Below, one piece after another: positions 2,323-52,000 of a stretch of DNA of 64,000 bases. Origin of the DNA: Saccostrea cucullata (taxonomy: Eukaryota). The notes below the pieces were generated by a model. It worked only from the letters and a program-made list of their open reading frames with translations. It did not search any database and was not told the origin of the DNA. Within the stretch, counting starts at the first letter, position 1, and every line of letters starts with the position of its first letter. The stretch spans positions 1 to 64,000 of the forward strand of contig NW_026941528.1 of the NCBI RefSeq assembly GCF_032062105.1. The letters are read 5' to 3'. The position numbers and the translations under genes were made by a program.

Positions 2323-2672
2323 AAAAGGAGATAGTAGCCTTTCAAGCCAGAGCTAATACAAGACAAGTGGGTATCCCTAAACACCACACCGTCAAGTTTG
2401 GTTTGGTGATAACCAAAAGGCATAGCTTTGAAAAGTCGGGTACTGCCACTGCAAGGATAGAATTACAAAAGGGAGAGAAAGTGTGGGTGAGAACATCCAG
2501 TTTTGGGTCAGATGCCCATTCTGTTTGGCCCACATTTGGAGGACATAAGTTGTTAAGGAATTATAAATCGTTTAACAAAATAAAGTTAACGTTCCATGAA
2601 GAATTACTTCTGCATTTTTTTTTTAATTTCATTAAGAAAATACCGTTTAAGATCAAATTTGAGATAAAGTAA
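2323..2672 (+). pseudogene. C1q-domain (gC1q/C1qDC) terminal exon with internal deletion
   Basis: tttacag acceptor at 2316-2322, then KEIVAFQARA...HTVKFGLVIT joined directly to SGTATARIELQKGEKVWVR...WPTFGGHKL. First and last gC1q strands are recognisable; the central TGxFxxPxxGxYxF part is absent. Confidence 0.7.
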
Positions 2673-3860
2673 ATGTAGCAGTATGAAATGATAAACACAT
2701 AAAAGCGCAAACAAAAGATGCATTCAAATCAAAAATACAGTGAATTAAAAAGAAATGCAAGTAATGTTTGTTTGCTAAAATTAATGCAATTCGGGATTTC
2801 TGTTTAGACTGCCTAATCCAGACAAATGTCCTTTTACATGTTTTTGAAAGATGAAAGTATAAATTTAAAGCTTATACTAGGGATAATCAAAGTATTGTTT
2901 GAGTGTTCGTCGTTTTTCAATGCAGTTCTCTGGGATTTTGATGCACATCTGCCAATCCGCAAATATGCAAATCAGTGATCCGTGCAATCACTTGATGTGC
3001 TCCATAGCGTTTCACAATTCACAAAAAAAAAAAAAAAATCAGTCATATTTCTTACCAAGGAAGTTATAATTTTTACATAAGAGCAATCCTTTTGTCACAA
3101 TGGCCAAATTTTGAAATAAGGATGGTTCTTAACAGATTGAGCATGGTGGCCTTCACAACCTAAATCATATGACTTTAGACCTTTATTTATTGAATGGAGA
3201 TATAGTATACGCACTTTCTTGAAAAAGGTCATACAAGTGTATATATTTTAAGTTTAAAATAAGATATTTTAGTTATTCAAAGATTTAAGCATTTTCAACT
3301 TTTTTCTTTCCGAGTCTTGGAGATCTTTGACAACAAATTGCTCAACGTAGTCCACAGTTCTCTAGTTTGGTCTCAATATACTCATTTCCCTTCCTTCACT
3401 TAGACAGTCATTCCAAACAATAATTAAATTCTGACGATTCCCTTGTCTTCAAAAACCTTTTACAAATTCTTATATGACACCACAGAAGAATTTCTTAGAT
3501 ATATAATGTGCTTAGCTTCTTGTGCTCAAGCATGACTGAACCAACCACTAATTCTTTCATAAGGCATGTATATATATTAGCGCCATGTAACCATTGTGAC
3601 GTCAGATACACGAATCAAAACAGTACATATCTGTTTGTATAACAATTGTTTCGCTATTTTTTCGATATTTTATTCTGATATAAATTGCAGTATTGTATAT
3701 ATAGAGAGATATTTCGCAAACGTTTTGATCCTAACACTTGTTGCTTCAAAATAACTAGCGTTAAAACAGACGAAACTGGATTAGTTTAAATGGCTACGTT
3801 GCATGTGGAATGTACAACCTTCATTGACTCTTTGAATTTTTAATTTACCTTCATATTTAA

Positions 3861-4880
3861 AGGGAAGAAGGACTTTTAGCTGAAAAAATACCTGTCGTTA
3901 TTTTTTTTTTCATTTTTTGTATATCTTTTATTTAGTTTGTCCCACATACCTTAAAGCAGATTTATCAATAGATTTCTAGACTTATTTTTGAGATATTGAC
4001 TGACAAATACTACACCCTACAGTGTCTAAGTGGAGTTTTGATTCTCAATGGTTATGGGCCCATAAATCGGTCCATAATAGTTTTTTTCAGCACAGCTAAA
4101 AAATATGTCTGAGGACCTGTGTCTTTTAAATTTTTTTTTGAGCGAAATAGGGTTAAAAATTCGAAAAAGAAATATTCTTTTGTCACACCGCATCTGGAGA
4201 CGGAAAATAACGTACTTTAAAAGACAACTAAAAAAATAAAAACAATTATTTGCAAAAAATCCTACCGTTCACTATCAAAAATTTTACGTTAAAATGCAAG
4301 ATCGTCATGTTATTTATTAACTGTAGAAATATCAATTGTTGAAGCTAAGCTGAATATTCCACAGGGCATAGTTAAAGAAGACATGAGCTTGAGAAAAAAA
4401 AGTCTCATGTTCACGTTTCTCGAGTACGGGAAATCCCAACTGTGATGTCACTTATTTACAAAATAAGCGAAATAAGACATGCCTACAAAATATTTCCGTC
4501 AAGAACCACGTAAAAAAATTGTGTTCCCTAATTTACAAAATATCCTATCATATACTGATCATGACCCGTTTTTATGATATTATACTACCCATATTTTACT
4601 GTGTATAATATTTCTGTACTAAGAAATCCACTGTGACGTCAACGACTCGTTGGACGTGCCGTGTAGGGAAACAGAAGTGTGGATCAATCTATTCTGTAAT
4701 TTGATAATGTTTGCTAGAAAGTTTGAATCTTTTTAGATATTTTTATACAAAGTGGTGAACTCAAACAAACAGTAAAACAATTATACAAGTACTGTGGTTT
4801 CAGTCTTGTTTAAAACGTATTTTCCAGGGACTATGACGTAATTAAATCTAGTCTTGTGACCATACATCCTTCATGCCCCC
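3861..4880. mobile_element. Kolobok-like non-autonomous DNA transposon (degenerate)
   Basis: TTAA on both sides; imperfect TIRs AGGGAAGAAGGA / TCCTTCATGCCCCC. Confidence 0.4.
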
Positions 4881-5071
4881 TTAAGCTACACGGGAAAATA
4901 GACAAAAAACAACACAATAGAGATACTATGGTTGTAAACTCACTTATAAAAATAGGATTGCCTCAAATAGTGACTGACACTCCGCTGAAATATTATTTTA
5001 ATTTTTTTTAAAATGAAGAAAAAACCACATTTCTTATCGTTCATATTCATATTACAATAATATAATTTCAC

Positions 5072-5421
5072 TTGTATCAAGCAATTTCATTGGCTGAATC
5101 ATTCAGAGGAACATATAACATTTTGTATAACATAACTTGCCTACGTCACAATGAGTTACGTCAAAAACGTATTACTCCGCTTGACGTTACTTTTAAAATA
5201 TTGCTCAGTTTGAAGCCTTTTCCCGGAGGAAATATTGTCTTATTGTCTGCACTAAAATTAAATCATAAGGAATGAAGCTAATTTTAACTTATGTTATCCG
5301 ATATAACAAAACTTGGGGCAGTTTACGCTTTCTTATAAACCGCTTCGCGGTTTATAAAGCGTAAACTGCCCCAAGTTATGTTATATCGGATAACATAAGT
5401 TGAAATAAGCTTCATTCCTTA
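5072..5421. mobile_element. Fold-back element with terminal ~155-bp palindrome (Crypton-like non-autonomous?)
   Basis: 5266-5421 is a near-perfect palindrome (TAAGGAATGAAGCT...AGCTTCATTCCTTA) with apex CCGC-TTC-GCGG. Confidence 0.55.
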
Positions 5422-45984: not shown

Positions 45985-46022
<38 letters not shown>

Positions 46023-49000
46023 ATTTACATCCTTAAATTAATTTATGTAAAACATCTGACACGGCAGACCCATGCTAGCAATTAAGTTTCTTAATCGCAA
46101 AATTTCTTATCCGTTAGATTAAAGCAATTCTCGAAGATCTTTCTGTAAATTGGTATGATTTATATTCTCGGCCGTCGGATGCTAAGATATGCGCGCGGGT
46201 TCTCACGCCTTTCACCATTCCCTCACAGAACCTTGTCAGTGAACGCGCAAACAAAAATTCTGCTGTAATTTTAATTGTTGATCTCTTCATATCTATTCAA
46301 TTGGGATAGAAAGGTATGGATTTTAATTTTTGATGTTTATTTTCCTCGGCATGTTGGATCCCTATGTTCTTAAATTTTTTAATGTGGAACAGAACTAGCT
46401 TTTTTGGTGAAAGCATATATCTCAAAACAATGGTATCTATTCTGATTGCGGGATCTTCTCATGTAAATAGATTACAATCGTATATCCGAGAACATTGTGA
46501 ATATGCTAACTTCAATTTATCCGCAACGGCGATTAATTATTTTGGAATAAGTGGTGGGAAATTATCATGTTCCGCTCATATAAATATGTTAGAAAGGAAA
46601 ATCGCTGATCTACGTCCAGGTGTACTCATTTTACATATAGGAGGAAATGATGTTGACAATGTAACAGCAGATGAATCGTTTGTGAGGGAATTAAGCCTGC
46701 GCCTTTTATGCATCGCAGAAACTTTCACATCACGCTACAATATTGCACATGTGAAAATTTGTCAGCTAATGCCTCGTTTTAGGACTCGACTTTTAGACAC
46801 AACATCGTATAATGAACTTGTGATCAAATTCAACAGAGAATTGAAATGTCTGCTGGTACAGAAAACGAGTGTGCAATATTGGAAGCTTAAAAATATTAAA
46901 CACTCTAAATTTCCGATATTTTGTGATGGCGTTCACTTTAACGAAGAACAGGGGATGATAATATACTATAGGAATCTACGTGGGGCAATATTGCACTCCT
47001 TGAAGGCTATCCAAAAGTGATGGCATGTTACCTTCACCATATTCATGTTATGAGATAAGTTTCATTTTAATTTTAATTTTTGTAGTAATTATGCATTCAA
47101 GATACATGTACTTGAATTTTGAATATCGATGTCATACCAAACAATATTATGGTGTATAGAGTGTAGAACATTTTACGATAGCTGCTAGTCATTTGATGCA
47201 CATGGCATCGTTTTAGTGATCTGTCACTATATATGCACTGTGATATGTCACAGTAGAAACGGCTTCTGCTCATTTTGATGCACATGGCATCTTGATGTTT
47301 GCGATATGTCGCTATGAGCTGTAATATGTACAGCTGAGCAGTTGCTTTTATGTTATGGCTAGCAGCTTATATGTGTGAAGTGTCGCTACACTCTGATGTA
47401 TGGTACACCTGAGAAAGGGGGTTACACAAAGTCATTCTGTTTCAACTTTAACAACTCCGAGCAGGGAATTAGCAACAGAAAGGAATGTAAATTTTCCCAT
47501 TCTTGTCAGCTCTGCGAGGGAGAGCACAGTAGAAAGGTCTGTCCCACGTCCCTCAAATCAAGCGCAAATGCTAAAGGAAGACATAGAGTTAGCAGTAATC
47601 ATGGTCCGACAGAATTTACAAAGTCCACATCCAAATCATCAAAATAAAAATTTTGAAATTGTTACCCCAGTTAACCCTGATAGGTTACATGTATGGCTAT
47701 TAAATTACGATATACCTGATAGGGAGTTTCTGGTCTTAGGTTTTAGAGAAGGATTTAAAATACCTTTTCAGGGTAAAAGACAATGCAGACTTAGCGACAA
47801 TTTAAAATCCGCTAAGCAACATTTAGACATTCTTCAAGAAAAAATAAACAAAGAATTAGCCTCTGGTCGAGCTGCTGGTCCGTTTCAAGAACCACCATTT
47901 ACTAACTTTCAAAGTTCGCCCTTAGGCTTAGTGCCCAAAAAGCAACCTGGCGAATTCCGGGTTATCCATCATTTGTCATACCCAGAAGGTCAGTCAATTA
48001 ATGACGGAATATCTCAAGAATTCTGTTCCATCAAGTATCAGACAATTGACGACGCGGTTAAAATTCTTAAAAAGTATGGCAAGGGGGCTTTATTTTCGAA
48101 GACTGATATTGAGAATGCATTTAAAATCATTCCTGTTCATCCTTCAGATCACGAATTACTAGGCTTCACGATAGGAAGTTATTATTTTTTTTTTTATAAA
48201 ACTTTACCCATGGGTCTTAGTTATTCCTGTAATCTCTTTGAGAAATTTAGCTCATCACTTCACTGGGTTATGGACTATCATTACAATGCTTCCTGTGTAC
48301 ATGTTTTAGATGATTTTCTTTTCATTGGTCCAGCCAACACAAATCAGTGTTTAAATTCGCTGGAAAACTTTTTGAACCTGTGCAAAGATATAGGAGTTCC
48401 CATTAAATCTGAGAAAACAGTATATCCCACAACAACAATTACATTTTTAGGTTTAGAATTTGATTCAGAAAAAATGGAATTAAGATTGCCAGATTACAAG
48501 CTTCTCAAATTGCAAGAAACACTAAATAGTTTCAAAAGGAAGAAAAAAGCTTAACTACGCGACTTACAGTCTCTTATTGGCTTGTTAAACTTTGCATGTT
48601 CTGTTGTATTACCTGGCCGCACATTTCTCAGACGACTGATAGATCTCACCAAAGGTTTAAGATTACCGCACTTTAAGAAGTACTTGAATAAGGAAGCTAG
48701 GGCTGACCTTGAGGCCTGGTCAATTTTCATTAACCATTTTAATGGCAGATCCTTAATTTTAGAAGATAAATGGATTACTTCTGGAATATTATCCCTCTAT
48801 ACAGATGCAAGTGACCTTGGTTTTGGGGGTACTTTTCAAATGAACTGGTTTTGTGGGAAATGACCTGAAAAGTGGCGCCAGCTACACATTACAGTCAGGG
48901 AACTATTGCCTATTATACTGGCCTTAGATTTGTGGGGCCCCGACCTGCAAAATTCCTGTGTTAATTTTTATTCTGATAACATAGCTGTAGTGTACATTAT

Positions 49001-52000
49001 TAACAAACAAACTTCTACTGATCCAACTATTATGAAATTAATGCGGCGTTTTGTCGTCAAGACAATGCAGTTTAACATTTTATTTAAGGCAAGTCATGTC
49101 CCTGGTGTACTTAACGTTGCTGCAGATAAACTTTCTCGCTTACAGGTACAAGAATTCAAGGAGGGGTTCCCATCTATGAATCCAATGCCGACACCAATAT
49201 CTCCAACAATGCTCAACCTTTAAAGAACGTAGCAGACTTCATTTTGCAGAGTTCACTTGCTAAAGCTTCTAGGTCATCATACGATAGAGCTTTTACATGT
49301 TATAAGTCCTTCATGTTCAACCAATATCCAAACGTCCCCATCTTACCACCATCATCTCAACATGTCGCACTTTTTGTAGCCTTTTGTTTTCAATCCAACA
49401 TGGCGACGTCGACCTTGAAAAGTTATCTATCAGCTCTAGGATATATATTTAAATTAAAGGGCTATCAAGACGTAACACAGCTTTTTGTAATTCGCAAAAT
49501 GCTACAAGGGTATGAAAAGTTAAAACCAGGTACCAGGGATACGAGGCTGCCTATAACACCGTCTATTCTAAGAAATTTAGTTGACTCGCTTGATCATTTA
49601 GGTATCTCATTTTACCAGCGCAGCATGCTAAAATCAATGTATTTGTTGGCCTTCCATGCCTTCTTAAGAGTGGGGGAAATAACTATCACATCTCGACATC
49701 ACAGAGGTAATGTTTTGCTACTGGAAAATGTTGAGCTTGTTCGAGACGAATCAAACACACTAGAAGGCCTAGAAATAAGACCTGCTTCTTTCAAGCACAG
49801 TTCTGGCCGACATATTCCCACCTTGTTTCTACAGGCTAGTAATTCCGATGAAGGGCTCTGTCCAGTGCAAGCACTATTGTCATTTATTACACTAAGGGGT
49901 CAAGTCATGGGTCCCCTTTTTTCTTACCCTGATGGTCATGGAATCCAAAGGCAACAATTTACAAACTTTCTACAAATGTCTTTAAAGTGGTCGGGTCTCG
50001 ACTCTAAACTCTATAAAACTCATAGTTTTCGAATTGGTGCGGCAACGTCAGCAGCCGAAATGGGTATTTCAGATTAAAAGATTAAACAGATGGGACGATG
50101 GCATTCCGACGCATACAAGAAATACATACGCATACCTGTTTTGAAAATCTAAATATTTTCTGCAGTAAGTATAATCATGGGGACAGGGGCCTCTGATTAT
50201 GCACTAAATATCAACACATACTACGATCAGCTGGTTTTTGGACATAGCGAATATAAGTTTCCAGATTTATATTTAATTTCCCTTTATAGCATGGACTGTT
50301 TTGAATTTTAAACCTAGGTCATGGGGACATGGGCCTCTGACTTAACCTTATAAATATAGCATGGAATGTTTTGATTTTCAAACTTGAGTCATGGGGACAG
50401 GGTCCTCTGACTTAACCTTACAAATAAAGGATGGACTGTTTTGATTTTTCGAACTTACACGTAAGTCATGGGGACAAGGGCCTCTGACTTAACCTAATGG
50501 AGGTACAACTGCGTTCATTTTTCTTCGACATTAAGTCACGGGGACATGGGCCTCTGACTTATTCGCCTGGTTGTGTTTATATAATGTATAATTTGTTTTT
50601 TTATTCCGGTTGGCTGTAATAGTGATGTTAGAAACTTTGATGAAATATGACAGAGGATCGTGAACTTAATTATAACGTATTATGGACACTGCTGGTTAAT
50701 GGAGCTTGAACTAGATCCTTCTATCACTTATAAAGGAGTATCTTGACCATCTTTGAAGAAACTATGTGGTATTTATGTTTGTGCATTAATATTAACAATT
50801 CATTAGAAGACAATAGTTTAAGGATGGGGTTTATTGCGTTTATGTAAACACAATAATGTGGCGAATTTTTATACCCCACCTTTGATATCTATTGAAACAA
50901 AATTGATTATATTTTCAATTGTTCAATTTTTCTGATTCTGCATTATATGTTTATATGCATGATATTTTGTGTTTTTTCATACAGTCATTTATAATGTATA
51001 TAAATGACATTTTTCAATTCACTTAATCTTAATTTTGTTTCTTCATATCAAACAGAGTTAAACTATTGTCAGTGGGTTTACATAAATATTTAATTTACAT
51101 CCTTAAATTAATTTATGTAAAACATCTGACACGGCAGACCCATGCTAGCAATTAAGTTTCTTAATCGCAAAATTTCTTATCCGTTAGATTAAAGCAATTC
51201 TCGAAGATCTTTCTGTAAATTGGTATGATTTATATTCTCGGCCGTCGGATGCTAAGATATGCGCGCGGGTTCTCACGCCTTTCACCATTCCCTCACAGAA
51301 CCTTGTCAGTGAACGCGCAAACAAAAATTCTGCTGTAATTTTAATTGCCCTCCGTCCCGCCCCAACACCATCTGTAATTATTGCCGTGTCAGCATAGTTA
51401 TCTTTGATTGGTTTTGTATGATACATATTCTTTTAGAATAGTTTTTTATGTTTATGTTTTAATTTGCTAAAAATATGTACGATTGTGGTGTTTGCGAATT
51501 TTTATACCCCACCTTTGATATCTATTGAAACAAAATTGATTATATTTTCAATTGTTCAATTTTTCTGATTCTGCATTATATGTTTATATGCATGATATTT
51601 TGTGTTTTTTCATACAGTCATTTATAATGTAAAAAAATGGCATTTTTCAATTCACTTAATCTTAATTTTGTTTCTTCATATCAAACAGAGTTAAACTATT
51701 GTCACTGGGTTTACATAAATATATATATATATATATATATATATCACCTAAATACTTCTTACTTTCCTTTAAATGTCAACACAGGTATATCAAATTTAAA
51801 CATGTTCAACCTTAACTTAAGAGGGCCGTTCAGAAATTACGCGGACTAGTTGCACAGAAAAAAATATTTGACAATATAAACGGGCAAAATGTCACACATA
51901 ATATAAAAGAATTTTTCCTTATATGGTCTTCAAACTTTAATATTAAAATGTTGTAAATTGTTATCAATTTTGAGTGATTTTTTCAGGGCATATCAGTAAG

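Follow-up and report, generated by a model that had tools for sequence, protein, structure and literature searches.

Recurrent hairpin arrays between the SGNH and gag reading frames in part of a Ngaro-like retrotransposon clade: a likely RNA-level feature

In Saccostrea cucullata, a cluster of short hairpins lies between two reading frames of a retrotransposon, at 47095-47335 of the window (the whole 64,000-nucleotide stretch of DNA analysed here). The locus raises the question of whether these hairpins form a genuine element and, if so, on which molecule they act and which protein reads them.

The array is contained in a tyrosine-recombinase (YR) retrotransposon of 5.7 kb at 46009-51725, in which an SGNH hydrolase ORF is followed by gag, RT/RH, and YR, all on the forward strand. 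The element starts with the split direct repeat A1 (46009-46277, 269 nt), which has 99% identity to A2 (51079-51347), and ends with B2 (51494-51725), which has 98% identity to the 232-nt B1 (50861-51092). A (TA)n tract flanks it on both sides (45985-46020 and 51715-51745), and the flanks differ in other copies. The SGNH/GDSL hydrolase ORF (46430-47020), 5' of gag, is an open frame matching Pfam Lipase_GDSL_2 with E 1.3e-6, a match that falls short of the Pfam curated cut-off. Downstream, a gag remnant (47416-47647) carries C-terminal CCCH and CCHC-type zinc fingers, and the RT/RNase H region (47416-49223; Pfam RVT_1, E 6e-15) is broken into three ORF pieces. The ORF at 49130-50152 has an internal stop and no match in a Pfam search; we take it to be the tyrosine recombinase from its motifs. 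No methyltransferase domain was matched in Pfam at E<=0.1 on the ORF pieces of the window. In the full-length copy L031, the gag, RT/RH, and YR ORFs are open and overlapping, and the RT ORF ends shortly after RH. Three other copies (L034 at 2491-5139, L112, and L117) join neighbouring ORFs in a single frame of 882, 922, and 844 residues, which are likely frame changes particular to each copy.

The window copy is itself defective. Comparison with L031 places a 1,136-nt deletion junction at 47414-47416; the lost sequence comprises 336 nt of spacer, with the gag splice acceptor in it, plus 800 nt from the start of gag. Most near-identical genomic copies match through 47415 and then resume about 1.14 kb further on. 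The same deletion was found elsewhere only in L131 (G000:C10483), an allelic contig with 99% identity to the window locus over 9.9 kb including the flanks; the idea that the deleted form had been mobilised independently was discarded, as this second match is the same locus with its flanks. The assembly contains haplotype duplicates, so copy counts are inflated. Short fragments (L046-L050) were excluded; L046-L049 match only 47017-47155 of the window and the B-repeat end, amid other repeats.

The full-length copies settle whether the region is coding. In copies such as L031, 731 nt separate the SGNH stop from the gag ATG, with 30 ATGs and no long ORF. Therefore, the region is non-coding rather than eroded gag, as the first-pass annotation had proposed.

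That annotation had listed seven hairpins, of which six are perfect. The seventh, at 47095-47117, is an imperfect hairpin around CATG with a 7-bp outer stem (-3.7 kcal/mol), and it is kept in the lineage with dead ORFs described below. The first perfect hairpin (47195-47209) has a 5-bp stem and the loop ACATG; it is unchanged in L031, L034, L037-L043, and L045, and changed in the older copy L044. Its second copy, also with a 5-bp stem and loop ACATG, lies 82 nt 3' at 47277-47291. The hairpin at 47214-47229 has a 6-bp stem and the loop TCTG (TATG in L042), and its paralogue at 47301-47312, with the loop TATG, differs by a compensatory T-A to C-G change. Likewise, the hairpin at 47237-47254 has a 7-bp stem and the loop TATG (TCTG in L042 and L045), and its paralogue at 47317-47335 has a 7-bp stem and the loop ATATG, with a TCTG loop and a G·U pair in L044. 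An additional hairpin with a G·U pair and the loop ACGGC (47252-47270) was absent from the earlier description. The supposed constant AYATG loop fits only three hairpins as a 5-nt motif; what is shared is mostly a tetraloop, TATG or TCTG (YMTG), closed by A-T, which toggles between the two forms at several sites among copies.

The hairpins exceed what shuffled sequence would produce. Within 47095-47335, six loops of 4-5 nt ending in TG sit on stems of at least 4 bp, against a shuffle mean of 0.33, and 0 of 5000 shuffles reached six; this motif was picked post hoc, from the finding itself. Hairpins with stems of at least 5 bp numbered five against 0.74 expected, a result seen in 6 of 5000 shuffles. 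None of the other 241-nt stretches of the window held more than one TG-loop hairpin. Folding of the whole region was modestly unusual (z -2.08, 4 of 200 shuffles).

A single duplication of an 82-nt unit built the array. Two of its hairpins, spaced 82 nt apart, have identical sequences; the remaining four, paralogues of a single TMTG hairpin, are distinguished by compensatory pairs, for example T-A to C-G, and the older copy L044 shows a G·U state. The constant loop on variable stems is what would be seen in an array bound by protein. The array arose by tandem duplication followed by compensatory change; the earlier view that the stems are unrelated, and that tandem duplication cannot explain them, does not hold.

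For the family survey, 100 loci were fetched and one copy was taken per family. The spacers of SGNH-first elements are non-coding and 0.5-2 kb long. In those of 31 families, 126 distinct perfect hairpins were counted where 58.0 would be expected, and 11 of the 31 had an individual excess at p<=0.05; the L091 family stood among the controls in this count and among the spacers in later ones. No excess was found in the control regions, namely RT (72 vs 65.0), SGNH (28 vs 38.9), and the 3' UTR (29 vs 32.5), so the excess is confined to the spacer. One loop carried on distinct stems was significant in 10 of 32 spacers and in 0 of 32 RT controls, and 22 of the 32 families missed this strict shared-loop test. 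The loops are family-specific (for instance ACTR, GTTA, ATTY, CATTT, CAGTAT, AGAGTA, and TGTATT). A universal NNTG loop was rejected, with 19 TG-ending and 21 CA-starting loops among the 126; TG loop ends are confined to the nearest families. In a quick RT tree, several sister families have loops alike, for which descent alone is a sufficient explanation.

Beyond these families the pattern is patchy. Metagenomic data from other hosts gave 80 loci in 41 clusters, of which 14 had SGNH upstream; 3-7 shared-loop hairpins were found in 2 of those 14 and in one truncated locus. Shared-loop arrays occurred in none of the six elements of other architecture tested, three of which have a long ORF after YR that was taken as SGNH in the 3' position. 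In a quick-search RT tree of 38 rows, all drawn from this genome and one of them badly placed, the elements of other architecture, including the presumed SGNH-3' ones, nest among the SGNH-5' families.

The 3' array requires separate treatment. The five hairpins at 50170-50562 were thought to share their loop with the 5' array, so that one protein might read both ends. They fit instead a 7-nt loop, NCARGGG/ACATGGG, on a GGGG/CCTC stem. This loop is common to nine families with differing 5' loops; such hairpins lie 3' of the YR stop in all nine and also 3' of the SGNH stop in three of them. Besides the window, the class was seen in L051, L059, L061, L062, L064, L065, L066, and L092. The 3' hairpins thus carry a clade-wide loop motif of their own, distinct from the 5' array; a common motif at both ends was therefore rejected, and the both-ends idea fails with it.

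Mismatched pairs bear on the strand and the molecule. Near-perfect stems of the spacers contained 41 G·U pairs against 23.6±5.6 expected and 13 A·C pairs against 16.5±3.9, and neither was in excess in RT stems. With hand-chosen loops in 20 families, distinct hairpins gave 604 standard, 48 G·U, 7 A·C, and 37 other pairs, counts in which duplicated hairpins are not independent. A full path from G-C through G·U to A-U was found within a single array. Automatic strand-neutral anchoring gave 22 G·U to 3 A·C, or 13 families to 2 (p 0.027 at a null of 0.6), with 17 families tied or empty. Mutation bias on the plus strand amounts to only 77:53 and 37:32, and the tally in other hosts (1 vs 0) is too small to inform. 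The G·U excess points to a structure that would form on the single-stranded plus strand, which speaks against both dimeric transcription-factor sites and hairpins of minus-strand cDNA; we infer that the molecule is RNA rather than plus-strand DNA. RNA reads over the spacer were at low depth, and the libraries are apparently unstranded, so that the strand of transcription cannot be read from them. A search of Rfam over L031 800-7700 gave 0 matches at E<=1.

On these sequence patterns, the array is probably a functional cis-acting RNA element. A narrower reading, to which we give about an even chance, is that it serves as a plus-strand RNA tag that selects the RNA of its own family for packaging and reverse transcription, with Gag as the predicted reader. 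Here, the spacer hairpins with their common loop would act as the tag, and an element-encoded protein, probably Gag, would bind the array at several sites at once through its zinc fingers or its basic N-terminus; this binding would select the family RNA for packaging and reverse transcription. Family-specific loops would then stop coexisting families from packaging each other's RNA. The broadest version, an RNA barcode evolving across the clade in which each family-specific loop is read by the zinc fingers of its own Gag so that its own RNA is packaged, is tentative and at present rather doubtful. Action at the RNA level, a need in cis, Gag as the reader, and loop specificity between families are all what we infer. 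Among the functions first listed for the array, packaging fits best; kissing loops make a weak case for circularisation, as the loops of most families lack self-complementarity. Only 4 of 14 listed loop types hold a 4-nt self-complementary stretch, and the TATG and TCTG tetraloops do not.

Several features make Gag the likeliest reader from its sequence. In the Gag tandem zinc fingers, Cys and His are invariant or nearly so, matches of the zf-CCCH type in Pfam occur in a few of 28 Gag members, and the Gag N-termini are basic. Against this reading, the same zinc fingers were present in all three elements of other architecture from which a gag C-terminus was extracted, and these elements lack arrays. 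The Gag model (pLDDT 76.7) had no Foldseek match at E<=0.001, with a best VIA Z of 5.3, and the best PDB profile hit had E 0.2; the core matched no capsid-like fold. SGNH is a weaker candidate because in the L091 family the array persists next to a decayed SGNH. An initial description of that family as lacking SGNH was rejected, as an SGNH relic and a 641-nt non-intron deletion are present.

The main rival, which we regard as possible but unlikely, is that a host or element protein reads the array as an RNA element governing the splicing, nuclear export, or stability of unspliced or partly spliced RNA, in the manner of an RRE or CTE. The splice site itself speaks for this rival. A pyrimidine tract and YAG within 12 nt of the gag ATG occur in 24 of 32 families, a count that includes one misassigned start, against 150 of 946 other spacer ATGs. 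In the copies L091/L139, a 393-nt GT..AG intron that ends at this acceptor has been lost precisely, so the acceptor just before the gag ATG is a real splice site, and gag is likely expressed through an intron ending there. Arrays lie near or across such introns. In addition, five RNA reads with three starts, from one of three raw RNA runs, join a site 5' of the array to the gag acceptor (L031:1854-2544, AT..AG; window donor side 47054, within a non-canonical donor-like site at 47052-47060), and the whole array is lost in that joint. The joint may stem from non-canonical splicing, or that individual may carry a DNA deletion; 31 genomic matches included no copy in this array-removed form, starting at the gag acceptor. 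Reads of a sister family, at low spacer depth, showed no splice joints. Copies with dead ORFs would still need export, which also suits this explanation.

The position and persistence of the array fit it less well. Two candidate donors bracket the array in the window: one directly after A1 at 46311-46319 (putative intron start 46314), which has the top donor score of the leader on a rough matrix and carries no read support, and one 3' of the array at 47395-47403 (putative intron start 47398), which reads GTATGT/GTATGG in seven copies and whose position would by analogy match that of the proven L091-family intron. Across families, the position of the array relative to predicted donors varies. 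The intron-less L091 retains 10 hairpins upstream of the donor, and the notion of a wholly intronic, Psi-like array was dropped on this ground. A second intron-less copy, L132 (G000:C7085) of the window family, lacks a 2,250-nt GT..AG intron whose loss joins gag codon 92 in frame to YR, using the acceptor at 49144-49145; the fused frame is open over 426 residues, which suggests that splicing yields YR fused in frame to Gag. A third, L125, lacks a 258-nt intron located after the SGNH stop. All three keep their arrays and none has lost it, which is consistent with a requirement in cis within this small sample. Finally, a loop that changes from family to family within one genome suits partners encoded by the elements better than one host factor. 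Two further observations concern the acceptors: a hairpin at L031:2538-2552 carries the gag splice acceptor in its loop and could damp splicing, and acceptor-like sequence occurs in the end-of-RH codons of many families, where the protein motif confounds it.

A lineage with dead ORFs bears on the remaining alternatives. It comprises L040/L041 (one locus) and L042 (a second locus), hence two complete independent loci only. SGNH, gag, RT, and YR carry 3, 3, 4, and 3 stops, respectively, common to both loci, and from both an identical set of 221 gag and 600 RT positions is missing; substitutions in gag, RT, and YR are spread across all codon positions. Within each copy, A1/A2 and B1/B2 are 99.6-100% identical, and near-identical repeats are expected after recent insertion (PMC6681497). 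The lineage therefore likely moved after its ORFs had died. Compared with L031, 6 and 10 of its 153 array positions are changed, whereas the divergence of the neighbouring spacer is 13-15%. The array was also duplicated in this lineage, with 2-5 changes per copy in 97 hairpin positions. For the well-aligned copies, divergence of hairpins and of flanking spacer differed (Fisher test, 2e-4 and 0.033); flank counts for the first array copies were excluded, as they were inflated by misalignment. The A and B repeats are conserved in these copies as well, so that retention would equally be expected of a promoter or an export role. As a further caveat, a deletion derivative, L086, has an intact SGNH and terminal repeats, lacks RT and YR, and shows no clear array.

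The possibility that the array is a neutral by-product, produced by tandem duplication and by template switches during reverse transcription that perfect palindromes, is improbable and already disfavoured. Growth of the array by tandem duplication is clear, loop variants have spread among paralogues, and template switching between paralogues may homogenise an array, which would lower its divergence without selection. Against this, perfect hairpins are not in excess in the 3' UTRs, A·C is depleted but G·U intermediates have persisted, and the array is far less diverged than the adjacent spacer in a neutrally decaying lineage.

Still less probable is translational control, in which an IRES-like or reinitiation element would bring ribosomes to gag past the SGNH ORF. 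The array does lie between two cistrons, and spliced RNA of the L091 family has 10 hairpins in its gag leader. The spacer, however, contains 30 ATGs, the acceptor at the gag ATG provides a splicing route instead, and the array is conserved and duplicated in copies with dead gag, RT, and YR, which speaks against translational control of gag, one of the roles first considered, as its sole role. Palindromic DNA sites for transcription factors, forming an internal promoter for a spliced gag mRNA, are equally improbable: the order of short exon, intron, and ATG is an ordinary gene layout, ORF-dead copies also need transcription, and some family cores resemble what we take to be GATA, ETS/TEAD, or SMAD half-sites, but a conserved loop with co-varying arms is the opposite of a dimer site, G·U far exceeds A·C where double-stranded DNA predicts symmetry, and the RNA reads, at low depth, show no pile-up at a start site.

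The preferred reading, a Gag-read tag on plus-strand RNA, can be set against known systems. Retroviral Psi and the Ty1 5' packaging region have hairpins upstream of or at gag, a zinc-finger Gag, and non-autonomous derivatives that retain the hairpins. The array shares hairpins near gag, a zinc-finger Gag, and this retention. Psi differs in being excluded from spliced mRNA, whereas the array was kept in the spliced RNA that was re-inserted as L091, with its 10 hairpins 5' of the donor; its loops, mostly not self-complementary, also differ from kissing-loop dimerisation signals. Dimeric transcription-factor sites have fixed half-sites and a free spacer, whereas in the array the loop is fixed and the arms co-vary, with 22 G·U to 3 A·C. 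A further likeness is to the packaging signals of STNV, described as AXXA stem-loops with degenerate stems and one loop motif, five of them clustered in the 5' 127 nt (PMC5699041). Both systems have multiple short stem-loops with one loop motif on degenerate stems. The STNV signals are spread over the genome, whereas the hairpins of the window family are clustered in one spacer; unlike STNV, the array is derived by duplication and has a family-specific loop.

Among YR retrotransposons, the available sections of two accounts describe Ngaro-like elements (order DIRS) as having A1...B1-A2-B2 repeats, overlapping gag, RT/RH, and YR, and an SGNH ORF (bioRxiv 10.1101/2021.08.05.455354; PMC6681497). 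The window element shares the split direct repeats, the overlapping ORFs, and SGNH, and would by its sequence belong here in repeats and ORFs except for the position of SGNH, which follows YR in the amphibian Ngaro as far as described (bioRxiv 10.1101/2021.08.05.455354) and lies ahead of gag in this element and most of the fetched families. The hairpin-bearing spacer and the intron ending at the gag ATG are further differences, as the available Ngaro account describes no such cis element, and the sections of PMC8547959 at hand mention neither hairpins nor splicing. For DIRS-1, it is reported that the RT can act in trans, that the start and priming of cDNA synthesis are unknown, and that the ICR, by pairing with the inverted terminal repeats, has its role once the first strand has been made (PMC7192593). 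The DIRS-1 ICR and 3' hairpin resemble the array as cis-acting sequence in a YR retrotransposon with a trans-capable RT, but the ICR is, on the same account, not a multi-hairpin array. In the literature searched, the array and the SGNH-first layout are undescribed; the layout may stand in Repbase, in Goodwin and Poulter 2004, in Poulter and Butler 2015, or in supplements.

Hairpin arrays downstream of an upstream SGNH ORF thus recur in part of a retrotransposon clade and are a real, selected feature that likely acts at the RNA level. The array together with the matching family-specific Gag makes testable how DIRS and Ngaro elements select RNA for reverse transcription. If the barcode reading is true, dozens of families in one genome would each package their own RNA, and the genome would contain a natural collection of orthogonal hairpin-protein pairs; if the loop code is real, the families would supply orthogonal RNA-protein pairs comparable to MS2/PP7.
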